Made by a program: the position numbers and the translations under genes. DNA of 64,000 nt from Minisyncoccota bacterium (GTDB lineage: Bacteria > Patescibacteriota > Minisyncoccia > 2-02-FULL-40-12 > GWA2-44-9). The notes beneath the pieces were generated by a model. That model did not search any database and was not told the origin of the DNA. It was given only the letters and a program-made list of their open reading frames with translations. Positions within the stretch are counted from its first letter, which is position 1. Each line of letters begins with the position of its first letter. Positions 10,548-58,658 of the stretch are shown piece after piece. The DNA lies in assembly GCA_018062285.1 (NCBI GenBank), contig JAGOSO010000002.1:3164-67163 (forward strand). Reading direction: 5' to 3'.

Positions 10548-10886
10548 CTACATCATCCAGGCCATGAAGAAATCCATGTACGAAAGATTGTTCACCAGCA
10601 CAGTCAAGCCGTCACACTTGTCGGCAAATGAATTGCCCATGAAGTCGTTCATCAGCCAGGCAGCGTACCGCTCCTCGCGGTCAGCCCCGTAGTAGTGACA
10701 GTTGTGCCCGTCGATCACGACGTCCGTTCTTCCGATCGCCCAAATAAGGCGGATGAGCGTCCCGTCCTGATCAACGAAAGCAATCTCTCCATCCGTGGAC
10801 GCCGCCTGCAGGGAGGAGGTGGCGATTGGGGCGGCCATGACCAGGGCCACCATCAGAGCAAGAACCAACTTTCTCAAACGTTTCAT
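10548..10886 (-). CDS. Small secreted Cys-containing protein, tandem paralog 1 (signal peptide; C-terminus ...FFMAWMM)
   Basis: MKRLRKLVLALMVALVMAAPIATSSLQAAS signal peptide; GC-rich; GAGGG SD; the tool's longer ORF to 11027 runs into the upstream promoter, so the start is placed at MKRLRK. Confidence 0.6.
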   Translation of the reverse strand: MKRLRKLVLALMVALVMAAPIATSSLQAASTDGEIAFVDQDGTLIRLIWAIGRTDVVIDGHNCHYYGADREERYAAWLMNDFMGNSFADKCDGLTVLVNNLSYMDFFMAWMM

Positions 10887-10941
10887 TTGCTTTCCCTCAC
10901 GAAAATACTGGGCCCAACCGGTAGGACTCAGTAGTTTCAAT

Positions 10942-10970
10942 ATTATAGCCGATAGACCCGAAATGGTCAA
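10942..10970 (-). promoter_or_regulatory. Sigma70 consensus-like promoter TTGACC-17-TATAAT for paralog 1
   Basis: Minus-strand TTGACCatttcgggtctatcggcTATAAT about 55 nt upstream of the ATG. Confidence 0.6.
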
Positions 10971-11046
10971 TTGTGGATTATTTTTAAGTATTAAAAAAGG
11001 CTGGTGATCGTGCCTTAGCACGATCACCAGCCGTGACGCCGAGCTG

Positions 11047-14021: not shown

Positions 14022-16355
14022 TTATTTATATAACAGTTTTTGGAAGCCAAAGAAAATTGATCGAATTTCAATAACTTCACCGAGCTCTTGTTCTGCATTA
14101 GCAATGGCATGATATTTCAAATTCAAGAGTATTGGTAATTTATCTTCGCCCAATTCTTCAACGCCTTTTTCCTGATACTTAGCCAAAGCAAATTCAATGA
14201 AATCTCTCTGCTTTTCATTTAAGCCGTCGAGGATGTTGTACTTATTGTTTTGAATTCTCTCAACTCGACTTATTGGTTGTAAAGCAAAAGCGATGTAGCC
14301 AAGTACATCGAATAAGTCACTGTTCTCCGCATTAACTATTTTCTGTATAGATTCAAGTTGTTCCTTGCCGTAACCCATCTCACCTAGTTTTTCAAGCAAA
14401 GCTTTTCTAGTTTGGGGGTTTGACCATATCTCTCTTAGTTGCTTTTCGTCTTTAAATAGATCTGGCAACGCTCCGTAAAGACTATTCAAAAATTCTTCGG
14501 TTGATATTGGCTTACCATCCGCACTCCAAAACGAGGTTGAGATCATGTGCTGTATTTCTCTCTCTTTGCCATCTCGAAGCTTTATTTTTAGTTTCTCTGC
14601 TGGGGGTGGTGGAAGTACTTCACAAACACAAGGTCTCTGACCGCATACTTCACAAATTCGAGGTTCAGTTGGTGGCTTAGTCTCATCTTCGGTTGTTTGA
14701 TCAATTGGTTCTCCGTCCCACTCGGGATCTAGGAAGTGGTGATACGCGTCCACGAAATCTATAATTGTGAAATATTCTTTCCCATCAAACAATCTAGTAC
14801 CACGACCAATAATCTGCTTAAACTCAATCATCGAATTTACAGGCCTCATTAATACAATATTTCTTACATTGCGAGCATCGACACCAGTAGAAAGTTTTTG
14901 TGAAGTGGTAAGGATAGTTGGGATAGACTTTTCGTTATCTTGGAACTGACGAAGATATTCTTCGCCTAAAAATCCGTCATTGGCGGTAACTCGCACACAA
15001 TAATTTGGATCTGAACTTTTCTTGTGCTTGTTTATAAAATCACGAACAAGAAGCGCGTGACCTTGTGTAGCGCAAAATACGATGGTTTTTTCATTCTGGT
15101 TTATTTCATTCAGAAATACTTTTACTCGATTTTCTTCTCGTTCACGAATGTGGATGTTCCCTCGAGCAAAATCATCTTCTTTGTAAATCTTTCCTTCCTC
15201 AACCTCTCCCTCAACCACAGTGTCATCCGAAGTATAAATATATTCATCCAGCGTCGTTTTAATACGCTTTACTTTGAATGGTGTAAGGAATCCATCGTTA
15301 ATTCCTTCTTTGAGTGAATAGATATATACCGGCTCGCCAAAATATTTATAGGTATCTACGTTATCAATTCTTTTTGGCGTTGCAGTAAGACCAAGCTGTA
15401 CCGCAGAAGAAAAATATTCCAGAATACCTCTCCAGTTTGATTCGTCGTTTGCCCCGCCCCTGTGACACTCGTCAATGATTATTAAATCAAAGTAATCTTT
15501 TGGATATTCACCAAAGTAAGGAGTTTCATCTGGGCCACTCATGAAAGTTTGGAAGATGGCAAAGAAGATACTTCCATTCATTGGAACGCCACCCTTCTTG
15601 CGAATATCATTGGGCGTAATGCGAACCAGTGCATCCTCAGGAAAAGCGCTGAAAGCATTAAACGCTTGATCGGCTAAGATATTTCTATCTGCCAAGAAAA
15701 GAATTCGAGGCTGTCTCTTACCATCTCGACTGATATTCCATCTGCTCTGGAATAGTTTCCATGCGATTTGAAAAGCTATGAATGTTTTGCCCGTACCAGT
15801 TGCTAATGTAAGCAATACTCGAGGCTTCTCTTCTGCGACAGCATCCATCACTCGGTTAACTGCTATTTCTTGATAGTAACGAGCTGATTTACTACCATTA
15901 ACATCTTCGAATGCAACATCTGAAAACTTGTTCTTCCACTCATTCTGTTCAGAATAAATTTTATTAAATAATTCCTCTGGGGTTGGGAAAGTAATAACCG
16001 GCCCTTCGATACCATTCTTCATGTCTATCTCATGGATTTCGTGTCCATTGGTTGAATAAGAAAAAGCCACCTGAAGCTTACCGGCGTACGTTTTTGCTTG
16101 TTGTACACCTTCAGTAGGTGCTAGGGACTCTTTCTTTGCCTCAATTACGGCAAGTTTTCTGTTTTTATATACCAAGACATAATCAGCAATTTCCGGCTTT
16201 TGAGGTACGCCGCCCATTTCAATCTTTCCTGGAGATATACGAAATTCTCGATGGACTTTGGACCCTTCAATAACACCCCAGCCAGATTCCTTGAGTTTTG
16301 GATCTATATATTCAGCTCTAGTTTCGGATTCATTCATGTACTTGACATTATACAA
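14022..16355 (-). CDS. hsdR: Type I restriction enzyme R subunit HsdR
   Basis: N-terminal nuclease region, SF2 helicase motifs LTLATGTGKTFIAFQ (motif I) and IIIDECHRG (DEAH); 777 aa. Confidence 0.85.
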   Translation of the reverse strand: MYNVKYMNESETRAEYIDPKLKESGWGVIEGSKVHREFRISPGKIEMGGVPQKPEIADYVLVYKNRKLAVIEAKKESLAPTEGVQQAKTYAGKLQVAFSYSTNGHEIHEIDMKNGIEGPVITFPTPEELFNKIYSEQNEWKNKFSDVAFEDVNGSKSARYYQEIAVNRVMDAVAEEKPRVLLTLATGTGKTFIAFQIAWKLFQSRWNISRDGKRQPRILFLADRNILADQAFNAFSAFPEDALVRITPNDIRKKGGVPMNGSIFFAIFQTFMSGPDETPYFGEYPKDYFDLIIIDECHRGGANDESNWRGILEYFSSAVQLGLTATPKRIDNVDTYKYFGEPVYIYSLKEGINDGFLTPFKVKRIKTTLDEYIYTSDDTVVEGEVEEGKIYKEDDFARGNIHIREREENRVKVFLNEINQNEKTIVFCATQGHALLVRDFINKHKKSSDPNYCVRVTANDGFLGEEYLRQFQDNEKSIPTILTTSQKLSTGVDARNVRNIVLMRPVNSMIEFKQIIGRGTRLFDGKEYFTIIDFVDAYHHFLDPEWDGEPIDQTTEDETKPPTEPRICEVCGQRPCVCEVLPPPPAEKLKIKLRDGKEREIQHMISTSFWSADGKPISTEEFLNSLYGALPDLFKDEKQLREIWSNPQTRKALLEKLGEMGYGKEQLESIQKIVNAENSDLFDVLGYIAFALQPISRVERIQNNKYNILDGLNEKQRDFIEFALAKYQEKGVEELGEDKLPILLNLKYHAIANAEQELGEVIEIRSIFFGFQKLLYK

Positions 16356-16357
16356 TA

Positions 16358-17500
16358 TTATAGTCCATTTGAAAAGGCTTTGTCGAGTATGGATTTCTTT
16401 AATTCATCAATACTCTCAAGCTTTTGTTTGTAGAGGGACTCTAATTCCTGAGTCTTTTCAGAAAGCTGATCGAGTTTTTTAACAATTATTTTTTGTTGGA
16501 CTAGTGGAGAAATTGGAATTTCAATACTTTCAATTTGAGTCTTATTTATAGAATTAAATACCGCACCGGAATTTCCAATCAACTGATCTTCGAACATTTT
16601 AAAAAAATAAAAAAGAAAATCCCTATCAATTTCATCACCAACCCTAATAGCAGCTAAACCACGCCCAATACAAATTTTTTCAGTAGCAAAGTTTGTTGGT
16701 CCCACAGGTGCCCTGACTGACATTAAAATGTCTCCTTTTTCAGCTTCCTTTGTAACTTGAGTAGTCCAAACTGTTGGTTTTTTTAAAAAAATATCTCCAA
16801 AATCTTTTTTACCTTGATAGAAAGGTAACCCTTGACCTAATTTATTATAAAATTTACCTTCAGGTGATTGTCCTGCGATTACTTTACAAGTTTGACCTAT
16901 TTTTTTAACTTCCCAACTCTTACCTAGATTACAAAAAACATTATTTAAATAGGACTCAAAAAGCTCTTTTGAATTTTGCAAATTATTTTCCGTATTTTCT
17001 TTTGCTATTTCTAGATTTTTAAAAGTCTCATCGAGAATTTTTACAATTCTTTTTTGTTCTTGTAGAGATTCTGGAAAAGAAATCTGTATTTGCTTAAGGT
17101 TGTCATTATAAAGTCGAGAAATTGTAGCACCTTTAGTAGAATTCCAATCACAAACCTCGTAAAAGTAGTATAGATAGTCGTTTAATACTTGTTTTTCATC
17201 ATTATCAATCCATACAATATTTGAATCTTGAAAATATGCTGGCTTACCATCATACCTGACCCGTCTTCCAATTGTTCCAGATGCAGAAATAAGGATATCC
17301 CCTTTTTTGGGGAACGAAAATTTATTATGAAACTCGTTATATATTTCTTCAGAAATAAAGGCATCTGGTTCCTTACCAAAAGTTCCAATTTTATAAAATG
17401 GAATATCTCCAATTTTTTTCGTCTGGTCTTTAAATATCCTTTTACACATTGATATCTTACCAATATCTCCGAGTTTTTTTGTTTGCCAGTTAGTTTTCAT
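16358..17500 (-). CDS. hsdS: Type I restriction-modification specificity subunit HsdS (two target-recognition domains)
   Basis: Duplicated TRD architecture with conserved central and C-terminal coiled-coil spacer (LESLYKQKLESIDELKKSIL). Confidence 0.8.
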   Translation of the reverse strand: MKTNWQTKKLGDIGKISMCKRIFKDQTKKIGDIPFYKIGTFGKEPDAFISEEIYNEFHNKFSFPKKGDILISASGTIGRRVRYDGKPAYFQDSNIVWIDNDEKQVLNDYLYYFYEVCDWNSTKGATISRLYNDNLKQIQISFPESLQEQKRIVKILDETFKNLEIAKENTENNLQNSKELFESYLNNVFCNLGKSWEVKKIGQTCKVIAGQSPEGKFYNKLGQGLPFYQGKKDFGDIFLKKPTVWTTQVTKEAEKGDILMSVRAPVGPTNFATEKICIGRGLAAIRVGDEIDRDFLFYFFKMFEDQLIGNSGAVFNSINKTQIESIEIPISPLVQQKIIVKKLDQLSEKTQELESLYKQKLESIDELKKSILDKAFSNGL

Positions 17501-17502
17501 AA

Positions 17503-18924
17503 TTACAGAAGTTCTAACATGTACTCAATTCCTTTCTTTAGTTCTGATTCATTAATTTTAGGTTTAGTTGAATTGTAATGATTGATACCATTTCTGATTT
17601 CAGTTATAAATGTTATCTCATCAGGATGACCTTTCCAGGCTCTGTCTTTTTTAATTTTTTTACTCTGTAAATTTGTAAACAAATAATTCTGATCAAATAG
17701 TTTCACAGAAGTTCTATTACTATCACCTGCATCTTCATCTATATATCTTTCATGTAATATTCCATATAGTTGATTAAAATAATCACTTGATGGTATTCCA
17801 AAAACTTCATAGTTAACTGAAGCATAGGTTGATATATTTTTATCAAACTTCTCTATACTTGTTTTATTTGTCTTATCGCTCTTAATCACTTTATAATTTC
17901 TAGATAAATCATTTTTATCTATCATATAGTTTGAGTGGGTAGCAAAAAGACAAATATTATTTTCACCTTGAGATATCTTAACTAGCTCAGACAAGAAATA
18001 TTCTTGGGCCTGCGGATGCAGATGTGTTTCTGGTTCATCCAATAATATCAATGAATCAGAAAGCTCTTTAGTCTCTCTTTGAGATGAAACATTCAACAAA
18101 AAAGATACGAACTGTTTAAATCCATCGCTCCTTTGAACTGTTGTTCTAGGTCTTCCATTTGGATCATTAACATGAAAATTAATTATGTCTCCTGATATAT
18201 CAAAAGTTATGGTAATTGGATGGTTTGGCCAGACTTGTTTTATTAACTCTGTCACCTTAACACCCAGATCAGTCCGTAGAACTTGTCTCTCTGTAGAGTC
18301 CGTAGATATTTCCTGAATTTTCGATTGAATTTTATCTTTTGTATCTAATCCTAGTAATGAAAAACAATTCTTTAAGGGGATAGAAACATTGTCAGGATCA
18401 GCAGAAAAAGCACTCAGACTTATTTCCTTATTTATCAAATATTTATCTTCGGATTTCCAGAAAATAGTGTAATGAGTTTTTTTATAAATATGATCCTTTA
18501 ACAAACTTTCAATATTATCTTTTTGATCAGATTTTATATAAGCGCAAGCAAGAGATATGTTTTTTGTAAGAGATGGGTACTCAAAATTTACATACAGGGT
18601 CACTGATTTTAATTCTTCGTTTGAAATCCCTGATTCTGGAAAGCTTTCTAGAATTATTTTTATAGATTCAGAGATTTCTTCATCTGATTGTTCGTAAACA
18701 AAAACAACTGTAATCGGATTAGGTTTATTATGAAAATCTCCTATTTCAGGTTTTATATTTGTATGATCATCTAACAACGCCAACGCCTTTAAAAAACTAC
18801 TCTTGCCAGCCTCATTAATACCAATCAATCCGTATGTAAAACTACCATCATCCTGTGGTTGTATTTCAAACGGCGCATCTTCAATGCTTCTATAATTTTT
18901 AATTCTAACTGATTTTAATTTCAT
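17503..18924 (-). CDS. ABC-type ATPase fused to a C-terminal HEPN-like domain (PrrC/RloC-like anticodon-nuclease architecture) embedded in the type I RM operon
   Basis: Walker A GLIGINEAGKSSFLKAL, Walker B/D-loop LILLDEPETHLHPQAQ, H-loop LFATHS; C-terminal EIRNGINHY fits the HEPN R-x4-H motif; position between hsdM and hsdS mirrors the E. coli prrC locus. Confidence 0.55.
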   Translation of the reverse strand: MKLKSVRIKNYRSIEDAPFEIQPQDDGSFTYGLIGINEAGKSSFLKALALLDDHTNIKPEIGDFHNKPNPITVVFVYEQSDEEISESIKIILESFPESGISNEELKSVTLYVNFEYPSLTKNISLACAYIKSDQKDNIESLLKDHIYKKTHYTIFWKSEDKYLINKEISLSAFSADPDNVSIPLKNCFSLLGLDTKDKIQSKIQEISTDSTERQVLRTDLGVKVTELIKQVWPNHPITITFDISGDIINFHVNDPNGRPRTTVQRSDGFKQFVSFLLNVSSQRETKELSDSLILLDEPETHLHPQAQEYFLSELVKISQGENNICLFATHSNYMIDKNDLSRNYKVIKSDKTNKTSIEKFDKNISTYASVNYEVFGIPSSDYFNQLYGILHERYIDEDAGDSNRTSVKLFDQNYLFTNLQSKKIKKDRAWKGHPDEITFITEIRNGINHYNSTKPKINESELKKGIEYMLELL

Positions 18925-18928
18925 AGTT

Positions 18929-20446
18929 TTAAATTAATTCACTTAATTCGCTCATGATTTTTATTACTTCTTTATCAAGTGAAGCAATTTCTTTAATAAT
19001 TTCTTTTGGAGACCTCACTGCGACCTTATCTAGCTTATTGGGATTTTTCACTGAAAGATCGTGTGTCTTCTGATCCACTTCAGATACATTTATAGTCCAA
19101 GAATTTTTTGAATCTACTCTTGTCTTGTAAAGTTCCACAAACTCAGACAAATCTTGCTCGCTGAGAGGATTAGTTTTACCAAGATTTCTATCAAGATTAA
19201 GGTGGTAATACCATATTTTCTTAGTTGGACTACCTTTTTTGAAAAATAGGATTACAGTTTTAACACCTGCTTGAAATACACCTCCCGGCAAATCAAGGAC
19301 TGTATGCAAGTCGCAACTATTTAAAAGTTCTTTTCGTAAATTGGCAGCCTTGTCTTCCGATAAAAAGGTGTTTTTTATAACAATGCCTGCGCGACCACCA
19401 GCTCTAAGCTTTTTAATAAAGTGTTGTAGGAACAGATAGGCTGTCTCTCCGCTTTTTATCGGAAAGTTTTGCTGTATTTCTTTTCGCTCACCACCACCAA
19501 ATGGTGGATTAGCTAATATCACATCAAATCTATCCTTCTCTTGTATGTCTGTAATGTTTTCTGACAGCGTGTTGGTGTGAATAATATTTGGCGCATCAAT
19601 ACCATGAAGAATCATGTTCATGACACCAATGATGTATGGAAGAGTTATTTTTTCTTTACCATAAAAAGTTTTTTCTTGTAGAACCTGCCAATCCTTTGAA
19701 GAAAGTTTCTCTCTTTTCTCCGTCATGTGATCATAAGCCTCTATAAGAAAGCCAGCTGATCCGCAGGCGCCATCGTATACAGTTTCCCCAATTTTAGGAT
19801 CTACTAATTCAACGATCGCACGAATAAGAGGGCGTGGAGTGTAATATTGCCCACCATCACGTCCGGCATTACCCATTTTTGCTATCTTACTCTCATAGAG
19901 GTGAGAAAGTTCATGCTTTTCTTCATTCGATTGAAAATGTAAGACATTTACAATATTAAGAATTTCTCTAAGGGCATAGCCACTTTTAATTTTATTCTTA
20001 AGCTCACTAAATATTTCACCGATTTTATACTCAATGGTGTTTGGATTCTCTGCACTAAATTTCCTGAGGTATGGAAAAAGTTTTTGATCAACAAAAGAAT
20101 TTAAATCTGCGCCAGTGAGTGCTTTGTTATAATCGATCTTCTCTTCTTTGTTCATGGGGCATGCCCAATTGCTCCATCTATAATCTGGTTCAAGTATGAA
20201 ATCATATTTTTTGCCAGCAAGTCTGGCTGCTTTTCCTTTCTCAATTTCTAAATCATCCAGATATTTTAAAAATATAATCCAGGAAGTTTGCTCTATATAA
20301 TCCATCGCGCCGCCAGCGTTATCGTTCTTAAGTATATTGTCTATATTTTTGAATGCCTGTTCGAACATAATACCCAAATCATGCTCTTTTTTAAGGTTTT
20401 TATCAATCCTTCGACTTTGCTCAGGACAAGTGGCCCAACGGCTCAA
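18929..20446 (-). CDS. hsdM: Type I RM N6-adenine DNA methyltransferase HsdM
   Basis: HsdM N-terminal domain (WIIFLKYLDD), SAM motif I DGACGSAGFL and catalytic NPPFGG; the annotated start is a TTG inside a palindrome, and an internal ATG (MFEQAF) is an alternative. Confidence 0.85.
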   Translation of the reverse strand: MSRWATCPEQSRRIDKNLKKEHDLGIMFEQAFKNIDNILKNDNAGGAMDYIEQTSWIIFLKYLDDLEIEKGKAARLAGKKYDFILEPDYRWSNWACPMNKEEKIDYNKALTGADLNSFVDQKLFPYLRKFSAENPNTIEYKIGEIFSELKNKIKSGYALREILNIVNVLHFQSNEEKHELSHLYESKIAKMGNAGRDGGQYYTPRPLIRAIVELVDPKIGETVYDGACGSAGFLIEAYDHMTEKREKLSSKDWQVLQEKTFYGKEKITLPYIIGVMNMILHGIDAPNIIHTNTLSENITDIQEKDRFDVILANPPFGGGERKEIQQNFPIKSGETAYLFLQHFIKKLRAGGRAGIVIKNTFLSEDKAANLRKELLNSCDLHTVLDLPGGVFQAGVKTVILFFKKGSPTKKIWYYHLNLDRNLGKTNPLSEQDLSEFVELYKTRVDSKNSWTINVSEVDQKTHDLSVKNPNKLDKVAVRSPKEIIKEIASLDKEVIKIMSELSELI

Positions 20447-20531
20447 CCGGTTGAGCCGTTGCCCAAACCAAGCTTAGCCTTTCTCTTTTTATCGCTTGAA
20501 AGACACTCTGTAATACCCAAAAGGAGCGAGG

Positions 20532-20625
20532 GCCAAGTCAAAACTGACTGTCGCAGGCCGGGCAGGCCGGAGTTCTAAGCGGAAAAGTCAGCAGACTTTT
20601 AACGCGGGTCAGTTTTGGCTTGGGC
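20532..20625. repeat. Structured repeat element copy R1 (outer stem + conserved core gcggaaaagtcagcagacttttaacgcgggtc)
   Basis: Outer stem gccaagtcaaaactgac/gtcagttttggcttgg encloses the conserved core; the second copy is at 25965-26040. Confidence 0.6.
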
Positions 20626-20634
20626 TGAGCGATG

Positions 20635-21015
20635 TCACTCATGTTTGAGCCGTTTGCGAAGCTCTCGGTAATCCGGAAACTGTTGAGCGACTAAATCCCA
20701 GAAGTTCTGGGAGTGGTTGAATTCTTTGAGGTGGCAGAGTTCGTGGACGATAATGTAATCGGCAAGACGTGGTTCCATTAGAGCCAAGCGATAACTAAAA
20801 TTAAGATTGCCACGACGGGAACAACTCCCCCAACGAGTCTTCTGATTACGGATAGCAACTTTATTGTATTTAAAATTATATAATTGATTAAAATATTCTA
20901 ATCTCTCATGGACTAGTTTGCGGGCCGATTCTTTGTGAGCCAAATATTCCTTGCGTGGTGGCCTCGGCCTTGAAACTCTAACCCTCCGCCACACTATTTT
21001 AAATCTGGTAAACAT
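20635..21015 (-). CDS. DUF45/YgjP-like (WLM/SprT-like) predicted zinc metallohydrolase
   Basis: HEXXH zinc motif IIVHELCHLKEFNH near the C-terminus; this family is frequently linked to type I RM loci. Confidence 0.65.
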   Translation of the reverse strand: MFTRFKIVWRRVRVSRPRPPRKEYLAHKESARKLVHERLEYFNQLYNFKYNKVAIRNQKTRWGSCSRRGNLNFSYRLALMEPRLADYIIVHELCHLKEFNHSQNFWDLVAQQFPDYRELRKRLKHE

Positions 21016-21085
21016 CAGGAAATTTTAACATAAAAAAAAGATCCCCTCCGGCACGCATTGCGCACCGAAGGGGTAAGGGAAGGAA

Positions 21086-21571
21086 CTAGCTGGCCGTTTC
21101 GGCTGACTCGGGCTGGTACTCGACCATGAGTCGCCGGCCGGGTCTGTCGTAGATGACATGGTTAAGTTCTACGACCTTCGGATTCTGCCCCAGATCGAAG
21201 CGGATGGAAATATCCGCCTCATCCCGCTTCACTTTGGCTTCCGTCATCATCTGACGGACGAGGGCCAACATCGGGCTGGAGATGCCGTCGTTGCGCCAGC
21301 AGGAATCGTGGTTGGACATGACCTCCCACGAGTCCAGATGATCGAAGCGAGCGTTAACCGCATCAGTGATGTTCCACCCGACCTTCGTGTAGTTCTGGGG
21401 CCGGTGGAACAGAAGATGGGCGATCTTCTGGTGGGAGCGGGCGGAGCTGCCCCGGCGAGAGACGCGAACGTCGAACGCCATGACCAACACCTTCTTCTCG
21501 CCACTCCCCCGCGGGAGCATTGCCTCAACGATTGTCGAGGCAACTTCCTCGAAATCCATGTTCAAAGCCAT
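21086..21571 (-). CDS. Hypothetical protein (GC-rich island gene 1 of 8)
   Basis: 161-aa ORF with AAGGAGG 8 nt upstream of the ATG; the overlapping opposite-strand ORFs are rejected as GC-driven artefacts. Confidence 0.5.
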   Translation of the reverse strand: MALNMDFEEVASTIVEAMLPRGSGEKKVLVMAFDVRVSRRGSSARSHQKIAHLLFHRPQNYTKVGWNITDAVNARFDHLDSWEVMSNHDSCWRNDGISSPMLALVRQMMTEAKVKRDEADISIRFDLGQNPKVVELNHVIYDRPGRRLMVEYQPESAETAS

Positions 21572-21700
21572 CTGCTGTGCCTCCTTAGGCGTTAAAAGAA
21601 CGTATATAAATTATACCATAGTTTATATTAAAAAGCAAGTGCTAGTTTTTGAGTAAAAAAGAGCCCCCTCGGCACGCAATGCGTACCGAAGGGGTAATGA

Positions 21701-22204
21701 TTAGAGATCGTGGATGACGATCGTGGGAGCGGGAGCATTGTCCCACTTCTGCTTGATTCGCTTGAGCTCTTCTTCAACGGCCAACCCGACGCCCTCATCG
21801 ACAGACCAGAGAACATCGTTGTTGATGTCGAACCAGAGATTGAAACGATTCTCGTACGGACTGGGGGTCTTGAGACCGAGCTTGAATTCAAGGGCCTCAC
21901 GGAAGAGAGGAGCTGACTTGAAACGCATGGTCTCGTCCACAGCGACACGCTGGATGAGTTCCTGATAGCCGGTGAAATTGAATCCCCGGCCAGCAATGAC
22001 TTCCACCTTGATCACGGCTTCGCCAAAAATGATTGTCGTCTCAATGCGCGTGATACCTTTGGCAAAGATCCGTTTGAGCGACGACGGTCGAGAGCCCAAT
22101 TCAAACTCGGCGGCTCCCATGTTGTCGTACTCAATCTTTCCCCTTTCCTTGCTGGGGTCAAAGGCGCAACGCTGAATATAACGCGGATAAGCTAACTCGG
22201 GCAT
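21701..22204 (-). CDS. Hypothetical protein, paralog family A copy 1
   Basis: MPELAYPRYIQRCAF...GRGFNF...ETMRFKSAPLF...EFKLGLKTP...NLWFDINNDVLW; AAGGAGA SD; about 50% identical to 22614-23075. Confidence 0.55.
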   Translation of the reverse strand: MPELAYPRYIQRCAFDPSKERGKIEYDNMGAAEFELGSRPSSLKRIFAKGITRIETTIIFGEAVIKVEVIAGRGFNFTGYQELIQRVAVDETMRFKSAPLFREALEFKLGLKTPSPYENRFNLWFDINNDVLWSVDEGVGLAVEEELKRIKQKWDNAPAPTIVIHDL

Positions 22205-22333
22205 GTTGCCTGTCTCCTTGTGGGAAAGAACTCCCGTATTATATACCAAAATTTACAGCAAAAGGCAATCAAAAATTTTGTACAAAAAATGCCCGCTCGC
22301 AAGGACCAGTGGGGTCGATGCGAGACGGGCGTG

Positions 22334-22576
22334 TTAGTGATTGCCAAAAAATAACATGGCAAGCACGACGAGGACGATGATCCCCACGGCAAGTGGGTAC
22401 CGGTTGGCGGTGCGATTAGCCGCACGGCCACTGGCCCGACCAACGTGTCGGACACCGTTCCCTGCCACTCGGCCGACTCCACGAGCGAATCGGTTGGCAG
22501 AATCGGGGCCTCCGAAAATCATCCGAAAGCCATAAATCACGATGGCGAGAACGAGCAGTGAACCAAGCAAGGGCAT
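22334..22576 (-). CDS. Small two-TM membrane protein
   Basis: MPLLGSLLVLAIVIYGF...YPLAVGIIVLVVLAMLFF; GGAGGT SD. Confidence 0.5.
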   Translation of the reverse strand: MPLLGSLLVLAIVIYGFRMIFGGPDSANRFARGVGRVAGNGVRHVGRASGRAANRTANRYPLAVGIIVLVVLAMLFFGNH

Positions 22577-22613
22577 AAGTACCTCCGGCGGGTTAGATTG
22601 TTAAGTTTCTGAA

Positions 22614-23075
22614 TCAGCTGATACCAGCTGTGGGGCGGGCCTGCCATCTCTCTCTGATGAGATTGAGCGAGGCAGACAGTCCAACGGCTTCGATGGTCCA
22701 GAGAACATCATTCTCGATGTCGAACCAAACGTTGACTCGAGGCTGATAAGCGGTGGGCCTCTTCAGCCCGAGCTTGAATTCAATCTCGTCTTTGAATCGA
22801 GGTGCGGCGGCGAACCGCATGGTGCTGTCGGTGGCAATTCGCTCGATGTGCCCCTGATAGCTGACGAGATCGAATCCGCGCGAACCAACCAGCTCGATAG
22901 GCACAACACTGCCGGTGTTGAAACGGATCCCCGTCTGGAATTGAACAATTCCTTTTTCGAAAATCCGCCTCAACGAATTCTGGGTGCCCCACTGGAAATC
23001 GGAGATGCCCATATCGTCGAACCTGAGTTTCCCATCTTTCAAAGTGCAACGCTGAATCAAACGCGGTCTCTTCAT
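22614..23075 (-). CDS. Hypothetical protein, paralog family A copy 2
   Basis: MKRPRLIQRCTL...GSRGFDL...STMRFAAAPRF...EFKLGLKRP...NVWFDIENDVLW aligns with copy 1. Confidence 0.55.
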   Translation of the reverse strand: MKRPRLIQRCTLKDGKLRFDDMGISDFQWGTQNSLRRIFEKGIVQFQTGIRFNTGSVVPIELVGSRGFDLVSYQGHIERIATDSTMRFAAAPRFKDEIEFKLGLKRPTAYQPRVNVWFDIENDVLWTIEAVGLSASLNLIRERWQARPTAGIS

Positions 23076-23106
23076 TACCAGTATCCTTATCTGGTCCTAG
23101 AAGATT

Positions 23107-23607
23107 CTAGAACGATGTTTTTTGTCGAACCTCTTCGAGCATTCGGTCAAATTCTTCTTCCGTCATCTGTTTCAGGTGTGCTGACAAGTCTTCTGTCCCC
23201 TCTGGCCATTCAAAGATGTTTCCCTCTCGACCAGCCAGTGAATCAAATTGGTTCTTCGTGAGGAAATTGCCGACGGAGAAAGCGTCCAGATTGAACACTG
23301 CTCCACGGGATATTAACCCAACTTCGATACCAAGAGACTCATTGATATACATCAGGCGAGGGTGAACATAAACCTTGTGCCGTGGAAGTTGGAGCCAGAT
23401 TTTCTTGAGGAGGTCGAGATCGGTCACGATGACCGGACAACCAATTTCCCAAAGAACATCATCCACCCCCAAGACTACTGGCCACACCTCATCTTCTGGC
23501 AAATCCGCAATGAGCATCATGAAGGAATACCCGATACGGTATCCAGACTGATCCCCCTTTAGTACTGCCCTGAGATTTCTTGGCTTGTCTACCCTTTCTG
23601 AATACAT
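23107..23607 (-). CDS. Hypothetical protein, paralog family B copy 1
   Basis: VDKPRNLRAVLKGDQSGYRIGYSFMMLIADLPED...; AAGGAG SD; shares its N-terminal pattern with 23725-24183. Confidence 0.5.
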   Translation of the reverse strand: MYSERVDKPRNLRAVLKGDQSGYRIGYSFMMLIADLPEDEVWPVVLGVDDVLWEIGCPVIVTDLDLLKKIWLQLPRHKVYVHPRLMYINESLGIEVGLISRGAVFNLDAFSVGNFLTKNQFDSLAGREGNIFEWPEGTEDLSAHLKQMTEEEFDRMLEEVRQKTSF

Positions 23608-23724
23608 CGAATAACTCCTTATCTATATTATAGCACGTTTTAAATAAAAATCAATAGAAATAAAAAAGCCGCCCACCAGAGGTGTCCGATGGGACAGCTC
23701 TTGAATGGACGGCGTATGGGTTGC

Positions 23725-24183
23725 TTAGGCCTGATACTTCTTGCTGGCCTCGGCAATCATCTTGAGAAAATTTATTTCAGACATCGGAGTGAGAAGAACC
23801 AGCGTCGGATGCCACATGAAAGGGCGACCCTGTTGGGAGATAAGGTGCGTGAAAAGTTCGGGTGTGAGGATTTCTTCAACTTGGCAGAATTCTGGCGAGT
23901 TGGAGACTGGGGCTTGGAGTCCCAGAAGTAGATTGACATAAGCCAATCTCTCAACAACTTTGCTTGGAGCTGGGGGCATCAGTTGCCACACTCGCTGGAT
24001 CACCTCAAATTCTGTGGCCCACACGACTGATCTTGTTCGCATGTAGACCGAGCGAAAATCTTGGTCCCCGCAATGATCGAACATCAAAGAGAAAACTTTC
24101 ATCAATCGGTAACCGCTTTGGACACCATCGATGATTTCTTGCAGATTCTTGGGTCGAGAAGACCCTCTGTCAACGACTTCCAT
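23725..24183 (-). CDS. Hypothetical protein, paralog family B copy 2
   Basis: VDRGSSRPKNLQEIIDGVQSGYRLMKVFSLMFDHCGD... same RxxPxNLxxxxxGxQSGYR...F..M..D core as copy 1. Confidence 0.5.
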   Translation of the reverse strand: MEVVDRGSSRPKNLQEIIDGVQSGYRLMKVFSLMFDHCGDQDFRSVYMRTRSVVWATEFEVIQRVWQLMPPAPSKVVERLAYVNLLLGLQAPVSNSPEFCQVEEILTPELFTHLISQQGRPFMWHPTLVLLTPMSEINFLKMIAEASKKYQA

Positions 24184-24198
24184 TATTCCTGCCCCCCT

Positions 24199-24729
24199 CT
24201 AGTTGATATGGGTCAACAAGCCGATGGCCTGAGACCAACCATAGATCTGTTCGGTCTTACCGAAGAAATGCTCGAACTCGGCCACCTCATGAATTTTGGG
24301 GTTAAACAAGAAGAGACGCATCCCCATACCAATGAGTGACCCCAACGCCTCGAGATGATCATCAATGTAGTGAGTCAACTCAAGGTCCCGACACAGAGCA
24401 GCCTTCTCGGCCCGCTCTCGACAGTAGTGAACACGGGCCGACGAATTCGGAATCCCTGTTTTCGCATACAGCTGGTGGTAATCCAGCCAGTGGTGGGTTT
24501 TGGTTCGGATGTCACCGTCGCGCTCTCGTGAGATCAGATGAACACGTCCGGCGAACGGCCCAGAGTTCAGATGACCCAAGACACCGAATACGCCGAAGGT
24601 CGGGAGGGCCTGAAGATAGTTCGGTCCTTTGAACAAGGCAGAGCCTTCGCCCCTAGCGTTGTCGATGACGACCCCACTGATATCCACGCCCAACACAGCC
24701 CTTCTTCCTGACAAATCTGCACCTGACAT
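24199..24729 (-). CDS. Putative HAD-superfamily 5'(3')-deoxyribonucleotidase-like protein
   Basis: N-terminal RRAVLGVDISGVVIDN resembles HAD motif I of the NT5C family (DMDGVLxDF); later K...W...H...IDDH region; AAGGAG SD. Confidence 0.35.
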   Translation of the reverse strand: MSGADLSGRRAVLGVDISGVVIDNARGEGSALFKGPNYLQALPTFGVFGVLGHLNSGPFAGRVHLISRERDGDIRTKTHHWLDYHQLYAKTGIPNSSARVHYCRERAEKAALCRDLELTHYIDDHLEALGSLIGMGMRLFLFNPKIHEVAEFEHFFGKTEQIYGWSQAIGLLTHIN

Positions 24730-24785: not shown

Positions 24786-25934
24786 CTAGGCTTCCACCAA
24801 TTCTTTAATTTCTTTTTCGAATCTATGAGCGCTAAAAAGTGAAGCTTGATTTTTTATTATTTCGGAATTGTAATTACTGTAGTTATTATTTAAACGGCGA
24901 ACCGCATCCGCCAAGGCTTCTGGTATTGGATCGTCAAAGAATTCACCAGTTTGGCCTTCTCGTAATGTTTCTGTCGCTCCCCCTTTGCGTAATGCCACAA
25001 CTGGTTTACCAAAAGACATGGCTTCAATTGGAGTCAGCCCAAAATCCTCTTCCTGAGGCATTATGAAAGCCCTACAGTGCGCGTAAGCTTCGGCCACAGC
25101 AGAATCATCCTGCTCTCCCAAAAAAGTTACCCTAGGGCCCGCCATGTGCTCAAGTCGCTTTCTATCTGGTCCATCACCAATAACAACCAATGGAAAATTT
25201 AACTTATTAAAAGCCTCAATTGCGATATCGATATTTTTATACGCATGAAGACGCGAAACGATCAAATAGTAATCCTGACTAGAGAATCGCGAACTTAGAC
25301 CACGAGGAGACGCGTCAAAATCCTGCTGGATTTTGCGCTCATTCTCAGCCCGTCGGCTTCCGATAGCTCCTCCTTGCTCTAAGCTCGCGATTCCTGGATA
25401 TATTACGACTGAATCTTTGCGATAATATTTTTTGATACGAGATTGGACAACTTGGGAGATGGCGACAAATTGGTCGACGCGATCTGCAGAAGCGCGATCC
25501 CAGAGACGCAAGAAATGTTGATACAAAATACCAAAGATTGATAACTCTTTCCCTTTGGCATATTCCGCGTGCCAGTCCCAAAGCATTCGAGTGGGGCTAT
25601 AGCAATAACAAATATGTTTGGTTGATGGTTTTAAAATTAAGCCCTTAGAAAAAACCGCCGAAGAAGATAATACTTTTTCAAATTCTGACAAATCAAAAGA
25701 CTCAACTGCGGTTGGCATTAACCACCCAAAGAGAACATATGTTTTTGAGATAAAAGGAATCTTCTGGAGGAAGCTCGCACGGATGTCGGCATCCGGCAAC
25801 CACCTATCCACAAACTTCTTATCATAAAAAAGAGTATAGATTGGAGCGTCTGGAAAAATTCTATGCAACTCAATCAAAACTCTCTCCGCTCCGCTTATAT
25901 TTTTTAACCAATCATGAACAATCGCTAATCGCAT
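24786..25934 (-). CDS. Family 1 (GT4-like) glycosyltransferase
   Basis: C-terminal EDFGLTPIEAMSFGKPVVALRKGGATETL (GT1 E-x7-E region); 382 aa. Confidence 0.75.
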   Translation of the reverse strand: MRLAIVHDWLKNISGAERVLIELHRIFPDAPIYTLFYDKKFVDRWLPDADIRASFLQKIPFISKTYVLFGWLMPTAVESFDLSEFEKVLSSSAVFSKGLILKPSTKHICYCYSPTRMLWDWHAEYAKGKELSIFGILYQHFLRLWDRASADRVDQFVAISQVVQSRIKKYYRKDSVVIYPGIASLEQGGAIGSRRAENERKIQQDFDASPRGLSSRFSSQDYYLIVSRLHAYKNIDIAIEAFNKLNFPLVVIGDGPDRKRLEHMAGPRVTFLGEQDDSAVAEAYAHCRAFIMPQEEDFGLTPIEAMSFGKPVVALRKGGATETLREGQTGEFFDDPIPEALADAVRRLNNNYSNYNSEIIKNQASLFSAHRFEKEIKELVEA

Positions 25935-25964
25935 ATTTATAGATAATTAGTTTTTAATTCTCGA

Positions 25965-26040
25965 GACCAAGCCGACCGTCGCAGGCGGGTAGCCGAGGGC
26001 AGAGCGGAAAAGTCAGCAGACTTTTAACGCGGGTCGGCGC
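25965..26040. repeat. Structured repeat element copy R2
   Basis: Outer stem gccgacc/ggtcggc (different sequence, pairing maintained) encloses gtcgcagg...gcggaaaagtcagcagacttttaacgcgggtc, which is identical to R1's core. Confidence 0.6.
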
Positions 26041-26099
26041 GTATTGAGGATTAAAAACTAGTCTCCTATTTTTATCATATTTATTGAGAGGGTTCATTA

Positions 26100-29062: not shown

Positions 29063-29893
29063 TCAGATATGTGGAGTGCTACCACCCACAACCATGCCAC
29101 ACACCGGACACTTCTCTCCGACGTTGGCGCTGAGTCCGCAGTAATCGCAGGGTTTTTCCGGTTTTTTGGGAACAATGATCTCGTCCTTAAAACCGGTGTC
29201 GTCGACAATACCCCCACAATTCCCACACTCGCTCAACCACCTGGCGCTGTGGCCACAGTTCGGACATTCCATTAATTCATCAATGGGAACACCTGCCCCG
29301 AGAGCCCTTGGTTTGGGCTCATTAGCAAGGATGGGCCTTTCGACAGAATCGATCAATGAGCCCCAGTCAAACTTGACCCGAGTCGGCAGAATGAAAGTCC
29401 CAGAGATTTGAGACTCGACAATGTGCCTCATAAGACCAAAGGTCTCGTTATACCGGTCGACACCTTCTTTGATCTCGTACAAGAGACGGGCCCTCTGGTC
29501 ACGCAGGGCAAGAACCTCGGGTGTTTCAGTGGCCGAGACCTTCTCTTTGGGGATAGCCTTGAACTGGCCCATCAAACTCTCGATGGCGCCGACCATCTGA
29601 TCGTGCTTTTTGTCGACATTCTCCTGGGTGATGAACTCTCGCACGGTTCGACAGTACATCGACCGATCAGAGTCATTTGTGTGGGTCAGGTCCATACTCA
29701 GACCTGCAAAAAAACCAAGGAGAACAGCAGTGCTCAAAATTGCAAAATAACCTGGGCCCCAATGCATGCCGGCCATCTTCATGGCAAAGATCGCAACCAT
29801 TCCGAACGGTACTGCCGCCCATCTCATCATCACAAGAACTCCCGAATGCCTACTGTGTCTGGCCTTAAAAACCAGATAGGGCTCCCCGCCCAT
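29063..29893 (-). CDS. Membrane protein with C-terminal multi-CxxC zinc-ribbon region, GC-rich
   Basis: Two TM helices near the N-terminus; C-terminus CPNCGH...CGNCGG...CDYCG...CPVCG (four CxxC pairs); the true start may be an internal Met. Confidence 0.45.
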   Translation of the reverse strand: MGGEPYLVFKARHSRHSGVLVMMRWAAVPFGMVAIFAMKMAGMHWGPGYFAILSTAVLLGFFAGLSMDLTHTNDSDRSMYCRTVREFITQENVDKKHDQMVGAIESLMGQFKAIPKEKVSATETPEVLALRDQRARLLYEIKEGVDRYNETFGLMRHIVESQISGTFILPTRVKFDWGSLIDSVERPILANEPKPRALGAGVPIDELMECPNCGHSARWLSECGNCGGIVDDTGFKDEIIVPKKPEKPCDYCGLSANVGEKCPVCGMVVGGSTPHI

Positions 29894-39398: not shown

Positions 39399-40865
39399 GT
39401 GAAGAAATCGATTACGTTTTACATCGTGACGGGGATTCTCCTCGCCGGTGCCGTGACTCACGCCATGTGGCGGAGCATGCGGAATACGGCCGGTGATCCC
39501 GACCCAACCCACTACATCTACATGTCGCCTGTTGAGCGAACCACCGAGTTCAACTCGCTCAACGACCAGCTCAAGACAACTAATGCAAACGCCGTCACGC
39601 CGGAAGAGTACTTCCGGACACTGATGAGGTTTGCACGTCTCAACGATGCGATGCGACGCGCTGAATTGGAAGGAACCAAATCCGACAAGCTCAGTACGGC
39701 ATCCGGACCCAAGGGCTACTCTGCTATGGGACTGAGCGATGATCGACAGTCACTACAGTTCCTCCAAAACGAATACGTCAACCATGCATATCGGGCGTTG
39801 ACGAACTCAGACGGAGGAAGGGTCGAAAAAGCTCGGAAAGACTCAGGCGTCGAACCCCAGATGTACTCTCACGCAATGCCGTTCGATCCATTCACGGGCA
39901 GATCGTGGGCCATCGTTTACTTCGCTGGTCTCTTTCTGGCTTTCGGCCATTTCCATATTCGCAACCAGAAGCTCGGCGGGAACATCCTCCTTGCATCTGA
40001 CCCGCGATTCTGGCTCTGGTTGAGTATTTGGATGTTTGGCCTGTTCCGCTACCCCACAGCAATCGATGTGAAATATCAGTTGCTTCGGGCAAAGCGATTC
40101 GCGACGTTCCTTCTCTCGACATGTCTTCCCCTTACCGCCGCCGCGTGCGCTGGTAAGCAAGTGAAGGTTCCAGGAGGGAAGCAGAACACCCCGCGAACGT
40201 TGCATGTCGACACTTCGACAACGACGTGGCCGGACTACGTCGGGATGAACGGTGCAGTGTTTCATCCCGCGACTGTTCAGCACTCAGTTGCTACGGCGTC
40301 GCTAGGCAAGGCCTACGTCGGGACGTTCTTGTCCGCACCTCTCGCCCAGCGCGATCTCACTCCGAACTTCGGAAATGAAGTCGATCTGTTCGGCGGGGTG
40401 AACGGCCAAACACGTGGCATCAGCTGGAACATCGATGTGAACTACGTCGGTGTCACACCTGTCGCCAAACACGCTGGAGATGCGTTCGTCGTCTCGTTGA
40501 CGGCCAAGCGCAACTTCAAAATCGGAGCCAACAGCACACTGACTCCGTCGATGACATTCCAACGTGCGATGCCGGTCAATGGACCGACACCCGGCGCTGG
40601 AAACTTCCTCCGAGGGAAAATCGGTTGGGGGCTGAATAAGTCATCGTGGTCACTCGGCGCCGACGCCGAGCTGGCTCACGATAGTGGCGCGTTCGGGTTC
40701 AACCCCGGATACTTCACGAGGCTCGGAGCCAACATCGGGCGCGCTTTCAACAAAAAGTTGCGTCTCGACCTGCCGATCAAGCTTGATCAACCTCTCTCCC
40801 ATTTCGGTGACGGTCGCAAGACTGAATTCCGAATGGGGCTCACGCTGAGTTACGCGATTCGATAG
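39399..40865 (+). CDS. Hypothetical GC-rich membrane protein (N-terminal TM, central hydrophobic segment with lipobox-like LTAAAC, C-terminal beta-rich Gly/Asn-rich domain)
   Basis: 488-aa ORF; C-terminal half has alternating hydrophobic/polar beta-strand-like pattern ending ...FRMGLTLSYAIR. Confidence 0.45.
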   Translation: MKKSITFYIVTGILLAGAVTHAMWRSMRNTAGDPDPTHYIYMSPVERTTEFNSLNDQLKTTNANAVTPEEYFRTLMRFARLNDAMRRAELEGTKSDKLSTASGPKGYSAMGLSDDRQSLQFLQNEYVNHAYRALTNSDGGRVEKARKDSGVEPQMYSHAMPFDPFTGRSWAIVYFAGLFLAFGHFHIRNQKLGGNILLASDPRFWLWLSIWMFGLFRYPTAIDVKYQLLRAKRFATFLLSTCLPLTAAACAGKQVKVPGGKQNTPRTLHVDTSTTTWPDYVGMNGAVFHPATVQHSVATASLGKAYVGTFLSAPLAQRDLTPNFGNEVDLFGGVNGQTRGISWNIDVNYVGVTPVAKHAGDAFVVSLTAKRNFKIGANSTLTPSMTFQRAMPVNGPTPGAGNFLRGKIGWGLNKSSWSLGADAELAHDSGAFGFNPGYFTRLGANIGRAFNKKLRLDLPIKLDQPLSHFGDGRKTEFRMGLTLSYAIR

Positions 40866-51977: not shown

Positions 51978-52979
51978 TTAGTTAGTTTGTAGCTTTTTAA
52001 ATACGATACTCGAGACCACAAACAATGAGAGTAGCCCAAAGATTAAAGCCGTGACAGAAGAACCACTGGAGGTTGGTCCCACTCCTGCGTTAGGAAGCTG
52101 CGGAATTGGCGTCACAGAAGGGGTTGGAGTACTAGGAGGTAATAATGCTGGCGTTGGGGTACTAGTCGGGAAAGGGGTTGAGTTTGGTGTCGGAGTTAAA
52201 GTTGCAACTGGTGTGGGTGTGAGACTTGGGATTGGGGTAGGAGTTGGTGTCGATGTTGGGATTGGGGTAGGAGTTGAAAGAATGCAAGAAGGTTTAGTTA
52301 TTGGACTAGTATCCAATGTGACCGCACCATTACGGGCAAAGACTCTACCATTCACAGAGGCGCCAGTCGTAGCCGTTATGGAGGTTAGAGCGACGAGGTT
52401 ACCAACGAAATTAGAATTTGTGCCTAAGGTCGCTGATGAAGCGACCTGCCAAAAAACATTACAAGCTTGAGCGCCATTAATCAAATTGATTCTACTCCCG
52501 CTCGACGTGGTCAAAGAAGAACCCACCTGAAAAATAAAGACAGCGTTCGGATTTCCTTGTCCATCAAGAGTCAAGGTGCCAGTGAGGCCTAAAGAAGAGT
52601 TTGAATTATAAACACCTGGCACCAAAGTTAAGCCACCCAAATCACCAGAAACTGTTGAGGTTGATGCTTGAGACGCAAGAGAATTATAAGCCGTAACAAT
52701 ATCTGTCATTGCCTGAGCCGCAGTAGCATCCGTTATGTGTTGAGTACCATTAACGATACCAGGCGGAAAACCCGTAACCGACGTACCTGGACTCAACCCC
52801 AGATCCCCATTCACTGTAGTTGAACCGGTATTTGTAATTGTAGACCCTCCAAGAACAGCAAAACTATCAGCGACACCCAAGCTAACTGTCGTGGCTGCAC
52901 CAGCCGTGAGGGATCCAAGTAAGCCTAGGCTAATAAGTGCTACAACCAATGCTAGTCCGACCTTTTTATGTTTCAACAT
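51978..52979 (-). CDS. Secreted DUF3494 (ice-binding-like) surface protein with Pro/Thr-rich stalk and LPNAG sortase-sorting signal
   Basis: Signal peptide; DUF3494 pattern ([14 protein letters not shown]...[11 protein letters not shown]...[14 protein letters not shown]); PTPxP repeats; C-terminal LPNAG + hydrophobic helix + KK. Confidence 0.7.
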
Positions 52980-57811: not shown

Positions 57812-58519
57812 TTAGGCCAAAGTTTCTGCTTTCAGACCACCCTTAGAGGACTGAAATTCTTCTTGGGCAGCAAGATCACGCTTCTTTGCGATCTCTTTGC
57901 AAACCCTCTTGCGCAAGGCTTCGATTTGCTCCCTTGAGCCCGACCGGCCACTGCCGGCAAACTCTTTGCAAAAACGAGACCAGTTTGATTCTACTTCTGC
58001 CGTCAGGTGCTTCATGGGCATATTGCAAAGAGCCTCGCCCCACAATTCCAAACCAACGAGATCAAGCACGTCACCATGATCTCTCATGGCCGAAGACAAG
58101 AAAGTCTCAAAGGCCATACTGGAACGCATATTGCTCAAGTCGGCACTGTTTGAAGTGGAAAGATTGGCCGCAATAGTGATCACGGACTTAGTCTGCAAAT
58201 TCGATGGCATGGAATAACGCACGCCGGTAGAAATCTTATTGGCAGACTCAAGGAGGGATGCAATCTCGGATTTCGCCTGGTCCATGAAATGCCGAGCATC
58301 CCAATCCAAAGCGAACACAAGCTGGACGTAATCACTACCTGTCCCCAACTGGTTGATCGCCATAACAAAGCGATCTCGGACAACATCAATCCTGTCTGCC
58401 GTAGAAAGAAACCAAGGCACCAAAATAAGTGCGGGCGCACCTTGGCCAGTCGTAACGGTGTAATCATGGGAGTGCTGAATTACCAAACGCTCCCGGGTAC
58501 CCTCTTCGTGTCTTCTCAT
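57812..58519 (-). CDS. Hypothetical protein (approx. 235 aa), GC-rich
   Basis: GGGAG SD before ATG (MRRHEEGTRERLVIQHSHDY...); the tool start at 58603 is a TTG with no SD. Confidence 0.4.
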   Translation of the reverse strand: MRRHEEGTRERLVIQHSHDYTVTTGQGAPALILVPWFLSTADRIDVVRDRFVMAINQLGTGSDYVQLVFALDWDARHFMDQAKSEIASLLESANKISTGVRYSMPSNLQTKSVITIAANLSTSNSADLSNMRSSMAFETFLSSAMRDHGDVLDLVGLELWGEALCNMPMKHLTAEVESNWSRFCKEFAGSGRSGSREQIEALRKRVCKEIAKKRDLAAQEEFQSSKGGLKAETLA

Positions 58520-58658
58520 TACTAACTCCCGACATCCACGCTCCAAGGCGCATCGTCTTAGGCCCCTATGGCCCAAAACTAGGATTTGCATATTATACAA
58601 CAAAAAGACTTTTCAGCAAAGGTTGGGTTGAGAGAGTTCAATCTGATATACTAATCAC

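Follow-up and report, generated by a model that had tools for sequence, protein, structure and literature searches.

The DNA analysed here is a 64,000-nt stretch (the window) of a metagenome-assembled genome (MAG) labelled Candidatus Pacebacteria, which belongs to the Patescibacteria or Candidate Phyla Radiation (CPR), and its feature of interest is a ~3.6 kb islet at 21086–24729 that carries seven small genes, all on the minus strand. A sequence-only reading of the same DNA had counted eight same-strand genes in two tandem paralog pairs and had taken them for an immunity/anti-defence array or a small defence cassette next to a restriction–modification (R-M) locus. The common strand was confirmed, but only seven open reading frames (ORFs) were found, as many as that reading itself listed; the candidate for an eighth, a YgjP-like gene, lies outside the islet at 20635–21015 and has a backbone-like G+C content at third codon positions (GC3) of 0.43. 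Both paralog pairs were also recovered, A1/A2 with 44% identity (E 6e-49) and B1/B2 with 26% (E 2e-15). The genes and their predicted signals are given below in the direction of transcription; promoters and terminators are consensus matches only, some of them read by eye from the sequence.

24199–24729, minus strand: g7, ORF of 176 aa, HAD-like putative phosphatase, first gene of unit 1, GC3 0.63
23725–24183, minus strand: B2, ORF of 152 aa, family B copy 2, beginning 15 nt past g7, GC3 0.54
23672–23693, minus strand: intrinsic terminator at the end of unit 1 (g7-B2), 9-pair stem and T-run
23627–23654, minus strand: sigma-70-like promoter of unit 2, TTGATT-16-TATAAT with TG, consensus match
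23107–23607, minus strand: B1, ORF of 166 aa, family B copy 1, isoelectric point (pI) 4.8
22614–23075, minus strand: A2, 153 aa, family A copy 2, by ORF and family profile
22334–22576, minus strand: TM, ORF of 80 aa, two-transmembrane hairpin protein, last gene of unit 2
22284–22330, minus strand: terminator-like hairpin GCCCGTCTCGCA...TGCGAGCGGGC with T-run at the end of unit 2, read by eye, its loop being over-long for the terminator scanner
22238–22248, minus strand: extended −10-like element TGGTATATAAT of unit 3, read by eye, with a weak −35
21701–22204, minus strand: A1, 167 aa from the ATG, family A copy 1, monocistronic, by ORF and family profile
21664–21694, minus strand: intrinsic terminator of unit 3, found by scan, part of a 43-nt repeat
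21610–21638, minus strand: promoter-like site of unit 4, TTGCTT-17-TGnTATAAT, read by eye
21086–21571, minus strand: g1, ORF of 161 aa, HDSCWR-motif family, GC3 0.78 (islet maximum)
21043–21073, minus strand: intrinsic terminator of unit 4, found by scan, in the second copy of the 43-nt repeat

Every start in the islet is preceded by a Shine-Dalgarno-like site (AAGGAGG, AAGGAGA, GGAGGT or AAGGAG), as had been claimed, whereas the claimed spacing of 20–40 nt held roughly at three of the six junctions (15, 31, and 37 nt) and failed at the other three, where the spacers measure 117 nt (B2 to B1), 129 nt (TM to A1), and 129 nt (A1 to g1). In each long spacer, a G+C-rich hairpin with a T-run has the form of an intrinsic terminator, and a promoter-like −10 element comes after it. 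Because a terminator and a new promoter occur together in each of the three, four transcription units are predicted, namely g7-B2, B1-A2-TM, A1, and g1. The last three are predicted self-contained promoter-gene(s)-terminator layouts, and the first may be read through from the upstream GT4 glycosyltransferase gene, since no terminator was found between GT4 and g7. The 43-nt terminator sequence is directly repeated on both sides of g1 (21034–21076 and 21655–21697, 88% identical, the differences leaving the hairpin intact), a hint that insertion or duplication of the g1 cassette included its terminator. An integron cassette array was not found, as there is no integrase and the cassettes have their own predicted promoters; since the hairpins have T-runs behind them, these are terminators and not attC sites.

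The abrupt switch to a G+C-rich, foreign composition described by the sequence-only reading was borne out by both windowed GC and GC3. GC reached 0.50–0.56 across 21.0–24.75 kb, compared with 0.27–0.38 in the R-M locus and ~0.42 in the backbone, and the GC3 of the seven genes ranged from 0.51 to 0.78 (mean 0.62), against a mean of 0.40 and a standard deviation of 0.09 for the other genes of the window. The islet thus stands more than two standard deviations over the backbone as a contiguous block with sharp edges, the edge contrast being exaggerated by the adjacent AT-rich R-M locus (GC3 0.21–0.34). The intergenic spacers with their promoters and terminators have a host-like GC of 0.40–0.47. 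In a MAG, such an abrupt change could mark an assembly chimera, in which a G+C-rich block of another organism was mis-joined to the contig, and an independent contig indeed ends near both sides of the block. However, this Logan contig of 4755 bp (L005) carries the whole islet together with 183 GT4 codons and the complete YgjP-like ORF and so reproduces both backbone junctions, and a contig from a second sample (L004) carries B2'-B1-A2-TM, the central 1.6 kb, at 99.4% identity. Because both junctions are spanned and the middle of the islet recurs in another sample, we consider a chimera extremely improbable.

The seven proteins were compared with Pfam, NCBIfam, PHROGs, and PADLOC at E ≤1, and nothing beyond chance-level matches was obtained, in line with the earlier statement that none carries a motif of a known family. 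Relatives of family A were recovered by an exhaustive profile search, which gave 773 representative clusters at E ≤1e-3 and 183 at E ≤1e-10, against three distant relatives in a word-indexed search. A1 and A2 score 228 and 219 bits on the family profile and are reciprocal best matches within the whole family, with 142 bits to each other and at most 107 bits to any other member. The family blocks P-x-L-I-Q-R-C, Y-x-Y-M-G-S-x-E-F-E-x-G, and N-V-W-F-D-x-x-N-D-V-L-W are visible in both. Comparison of 123 members with Pfam and PHROGs gave single chance-level matches only, and a sequence search of the PDB with the family profile gave nothing significant. An AlphaFold model of A2, built from the 123-sequence alignment with high scores (pLDDT 95.5, pTM 0.89), predicts an alpha/beta protein of ~150 aa with three beta-hairpins and four helices, and this predicted structure has no structural neighbour in the PDB.

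Among 152 cellular and viral members, the residues Q8, R9, Y21, M22, G23, S24, E26, F27, E28, G30, E90, W117, D119, and N122 are conserved in at least 75%. A2 carries the non-consensus changes Y21D, S24I, E26D, E28Q, and E90A, whereas A1 retains E26 and E28 (by eye), E90 being lost in both copies. As E26 and E28 are kept in A1 and lost in A2, the comparison suggests one copy closer to the consensus and one diverged copy, the latter predicted to be co-expressed with B1 and the membrane protein. N-terminal transmembrane helices occur in two of the 123 members (P0004 and P0012), and a subset (P0022, P0025, P0030-32, P0041, P0047, P0049, and P0058) shares a conserved C-terminal extension of ~80 aa (…WLNP-x-EQ…GWFTL-x-x-L-x-x-W…).

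Cellular members of family A are singletons beside core genes. They come from no fewer than two further Patescibacteria MAGs and from several metagenomic contigs of comparable gene content, and have the following neighbours.

Locus L003 (Lloydbacteria): gyrB and pheT
Loci L021 and L022: lepA
Locus L023: RNase Y and HU
Locus L024: clpB
Locus L025: dnaB and recR
Locus L026: nusA and clpB

The composition of the Lloydbacteria locus, the one that was checked, matches its ~0.50-GC genome. A conserved partner gene was not found, the short ORFs downstream at the chromosomal loci being mutually unrelated and none of them encoding a membrane protein. On an AT-rich metagenomic contig (33% GC; L019, 1350–6453) that looks phage- or plasmid-like, a family A gene comes after several consecutive small ORFs on the same strand, among them three tandem paralogs (MFE-x-IIDRNS-x-EYSRRF…).

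Family A was also found on 29 IMG/VR viral contigs of 13–485 kb, with one gene each and E values of 1e-49 to 1e-14 on the family hidden Markov model. These loci were recovered through an alignment of long-form members, the empty result of an earlier viral scan with a narrow pattern being an artefact of that pattern. Among the genes that recur there or lie nearest to family A are those for a GyrB-like topoisomerase, ATP-dependent DNA ligase, dCMP and dCTP deaminases, a primase-helicase, and helicases, as well as Thg1, a CCA-adding enzyme, RtcB, Erf, exonuclease VIII, NinG/Rap, methyltransferases, and integrases. The viral habitat of family A is therefore the replication, recombination, and nucleotide module. 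By tblastn, A2 and one long-form member had no match in GenBank phages, nor had A2 in plasmids.

Two more islet genes have phage relatives. The g1 protein gave a weak tblastn match in Myxococcus phage Mx1, and a g1-family ORF was located 2.4 kb downstream of the family A gene on the 75-kb viral contig IMGVR_UViG_3300005530_000004. In a three-way alignment of g1, the Mx1 match, and this ORF, the HDSCWR motif is invariant. A pattern scan placed the g1 family on five viral contigs, one of which also bears family A, and apart from the window IMGVR_UViG_3300005530_000004 is the only place found where two islet families occur together. On that contig (L032, 8001–11332), family A, an ATP-dependent DNA ligase, and the g1-family gene lie within 3.4 kb on one strand. 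A sequence search of the PDB with g1 gave nothing significant. By its sequence relatives, g1 is a phage-borne family, and it co-occurs with family A at least twice, in the window and on the viral contig.

The g7 protein is 26% identical to gp107 of Arthrobacter phage Atuin (pairwise E 2e-11), which is annotated as 'phosphatase', is encoded next to ribonucleotide reductase genes, and is the sole g7 homolog detected apart from near-identical copies. The residues D16, S67, K109, and D123-D124 are invariant between the two proteins and follow the order of HAD motifs I–IV, in an alignment of two sequences only. In the order and spacing of these residues, and in its phage homolog beside ribonucleotide reductase, g7 resembles HAD phosphatases and NT5C-type nucleotidases, with which it was compared by sequence alone. 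It differs from them in that the general acid/base Asp at motif I +2 is a Ser in g7 and a Gly in gp107, so that only the nucleophile D16 of that motif is kept, and in that no HAD or NT5C profile in Pfam or NCBIfam matched it at E ≤1. With a g7 profile, the best PDB match was Pex22 (E 0.024), the g7 sequence itself gave nothing significant there, and a g7-family scan of viral contigs found no match. The HAD/NT5C-like assignment made by the sequence-only reading is accordingly plausible in its HAD-like part, through the phage homolog and the alignable motifs, motif I by its nucleophile Asp only.

Family B and the TM protein gave a different picture. B1 and B2 are conserved over their whole length and hence are real genes; apart from near-identical copies, searches of 5.8 billion proteins, of GenBank phages, and of IMG/VR gave no relatives, and a B-family scan of viral contigs had no match. 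The acidic B1 has one other detected copy, 99% identical, in the second sample. TM is a two-transmembrane hairpin with an Arg-rich loop and a pI of 12; its only Pfam matches were sub-threshold (TrbC/VirB2 pilin, E 0.036), and no relatives were found among the 5.8 billion proteins, near-identical copies aside, or by tblastn in GenBank phages. A homology of B1 to family A through the common peptide 'DDVLW/NDVLW' was considered and rejected, as profile–profile comparisons of A with B, A with g1, and B with g1 showed no relationship.

Three of the five islet gene families (A, g1, and g7) thus have relatives in phage genomes, and family A is also present on the chromosomes of other Patescibacteria. 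We lean, with little more than even confidence, towards the islet being a horizontally acquired, moron-like accessory block of phage-type genes in a variable region of the Pacebacteria chromosome beside a type I R-M locus. Under this reading, the genes would have come from a Patescibacterium of higher GC or from its phage, and A1/A2 and B1/B2 would descend from old duplications. The products would probably have their targets in DNA or nucleotide metabolism or contact a conserved replication or recombination partner, and family A might do so through a conserved acidic site formed by Q8-R9, Y21-M-G-S-x-E26-F-E28-x-G30, E90, and W117-x-D119-x-x-N122.

Several points weigh against this interpretation. 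The next relatives of A1 and A2 lie on cellular-type and not on viral contigs, so "phage-type" refers to the distribution of the family and not to direct descent. The proposed function of family A draws on gene neighbourhood and conserved residues; no enzyme matched the family in fold or motif. As B1, B2, and TM have no detectable relatives, nearly half of the islet is left unexplained, and a single donor and a single event are not established, the GC3 varying from 0.51 to 0.78 among the genes. No mobility gene, att site, or tRNA flank was found that would explain how the islet arrived; the nearest tRNAs lie at 49.8–50.3 kb, and the ~100-nt repeats flanking the islet are structured elements and not simple att duplications. 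High GC may, moreover, mark a gene class of this genome rather than one import, because further GC3-rich ORFs (0.53–0.66) with no Pfam match are scattered through the window at 10548–11027, 29063–29893, 39399–40865, and 57812–58603, and the genome seems to be peppered with GC-rich genes lacking family matches. These ORFs, the host-like spacers, and the ordinary chromosomal place of family A in other Patescibacteria would fit native, lineage-specific Pacebacteria genes, vertically inherited, whose G+C-rich codons reflect a fast-evolving or specially expressed class. We hold that explanation to be improbable, as it does not account for a contiguous, sharp-edged block with a GC3 of 0.62 against 0.40, for the want of relatives of B, g7, and TM in 5.8 billion proteins beyond near-identical copies, or for the occurrence of three families in phages.

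The comparison with morons helps to define what is meant by a moron-like block. Morons are autonomous promoter-gene-terminator inserts of deviating composition that were first described in the lambdoid phages HK97 and HK022. The islet units B1-A2-TM, A1, and g1 resemble them in having their own promoter-like sequence and Rho-independent terminator, both as consensus matches, and in their deviating composition, and phage relatives exist for three of the islet's gene families. They are, however, not inserted between phage genes but lie back to back in a CPR chromosome with no phage core gene, flanked by GT4 on one side and by the YgjP-like gene and the R-M locus on the other. Since there is no prophage, the analogy extends to layout and composition only and not to setting. 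No integrase, transposase, or phage structural gene occurs in the islet, and no recombinase, structural, or packaging ORF in 20.6–26 kb, so the earlier judgement that this is not a recognisable prophage stands.

In the minus-strand reading, a GT4 glycosyltransferase, a response regulator, and mreB lie upstream of the islet, and a YgjP-like fragment followed by a type I R-M locus lies downstream.

24786–25934, minus strand: GT4 glycosyltransferase, upstream of the islet
20635–21015, minus strand: YgjP-like metallopeptidase, 126 aa, a flank and not a member of the islet
18929–20446, minus strand: hsdM of the type I R-M locus
17503–18924, minus strand: AAA_15/AAA_21 ATPase between hsdS and hsdM
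16358–17500, minus strand: hsdS of the type I R-M locus
14022–16355, minus strand: hsdR of the type I R-M locus

The YgjP-like ORF covers the C-terminal half only (profile positions 108–206 of 207) and may be a remnant cut down at the arrival of the islet; its start comes directly after the g1 terminator and has no obvious Shine-Dalgarno site. The R-M block, with a GC3 well under that of the backbone, is probably a separate import, and the ATPase between hsdS and hsdM is AbiEii-like. Elsewhere in the window, at 51978–52979 on the minus strand, an ice-binding-like domain protein with a strong PF11999 match (E 6e-68) was observed in this CPR genome. Genomic islands, type I R-M islands included, are common in Patescibacteria, gene duplication is rare, and horizontal transfer is common and often occurs from Patescibacteria to Patescibacteria (PMC12455944). 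The islet matches such islands in its deviating composition, its mostly hypothetical genes, its streamlined CPR host genome, and its place beside a type I R-M locus that is compositionally atypical too, and differs from them (PMC12455944) in its very small size (3.6 kb), its lack of an integrase or mobility gene, and its two tandem paralog pairs.

This setting is also what would favor the defence, anti-defence, or immunity array proposed by the sequence-only reading, in which the ~150-aa paralogs are immunity or anti-restriction proteins or form an anti-phage cassette in an R-M defence island. The islet adjoins the hsdR-hsdS-ATPase-hsdM locus, its composition is foreign, its tandem paralogs are diverged, each cassette has a strong −10 element, and both family A and g1 are found in the early regions of phages, the usual home of anti-defence genes. 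The diverged, cytoplasmic paralogs of ~150 aa are likewise reminiscent of polymorphic-toxin immunity arrays. In contrast to such arrays, no toxin gene or effector domain is present in or beside the islet, no Imm/SUKH-type match was obtained, and family A elsewhere is single-copy in replication or core contexts. None of the seven proteins had a match in PADLOC-DB v2 at E ≤1, and DNA-mimic anti-restriction proteins were rejected for most of them by charge, B1 alone being clearly acidic. As for the adjacency to the R-M locus, the GC3 of the two blocks differs by 0.3–0.4 and terminators lie between them; because composition differs and the transcription units are separate, adjacency alone does not link their functions, and no functional tie of the islet to the R-M genes was found. 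We therefore regard a defence role as unlikely. The sequence-only reading had named, as findings that would speak against it, a placement of A and B in housekeeping families or the same array in a conserved non-defence context with native-like composition. Family A was indeed found as single genes in non-defence contexts, with native-like composition in Lloydbacteria, whereas the array was found nowhere else and family B could not be placed.

Returning to the putatively acquired, moron-like block, structured repeats lie near its edges and may bear on how it moved. A palindromic element of ~100 nt is present in three copies that bracket the YgjP-like gene, the islet, and GT4.

20526–20630, minus strand: copy 1, between the YgjP-like gene and hsdM
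25954–26055, minus strand: copy 2, just upstream of GT4
25287–25390, plus strand: copy 3, inverted, inside the GT4 ORF in the linker between its two glycosyltransferase (GT) domains

A 29-nt core is identical in copies 1 and 2, where no such match is expected by chance, and all three copies fold to the same multi-stem shape. In the alignment of the element, 97% of pair cells are paired and double compensatory changes occur in 8 of the 22 pairs, compared with 33–52% pairing in slid controls, figures that lean towards structure as the alignment was fitted to its model. Copy 3 falls at about residues 181–215 of GT4, between two Pfam GT domains, and leaves the reading frame unbroken; a PDB alignment of GT4 was discarded as proof of an in-frame insertion, since only the C-terminal domain aligned and the alignment was uninformative. 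The Logan contig L005 ends within two copies of the element. The element had no Rfam match and was not found in viral contigs or plasmids, and it is a candidate for a small, hitherto undescribed repeat or mobile element of CPR genomes. It resembles Rickettsia palindromic elements and the repeats of the MITE (miniature inverted-repeat transposable element) or REP (repetitive extragenic palindromic) type in being short, dispersed, hairpin-forming, and present in both orientations, with one copy in frame inside a gene, and differs from them in its CPR host and in that the three copies seen all lie within 5.5 kb.

A bolder proposal combines these observations. Family A, probably with the g1 family, would be an enzyme or regulator with a new fold that serves DNA or nucleotide metabolism and is common to diverse phages, jumbo phages included, and to the ultra-small Patescibacteria, and the islet would be a mobile cassette block moved or rearranged by the flanking palindromic elements. 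We consider this quite a long shot; if true, CPR genomes would hold a cargo-plus-vehicle arrangement that had not been described before.

As a lead to a defence system the islet is weak, and its main value lies in family A and the palindromic element. Family A is newly defined here as a sizeable family outside Pfam, NCBIfam, PHROGs, and PADLOC that is common to phages and CPR bacteria and, judging from its predicted structure, apparently has a new fold; its function can be tested, given its place in the replication and recombination modules of phages. In the tiny genomes of Patescibacteria, each retained accessory gene is likely to matter, and the islet would show that imported phage-type genes, predicted to be independently expressed, are kept there.

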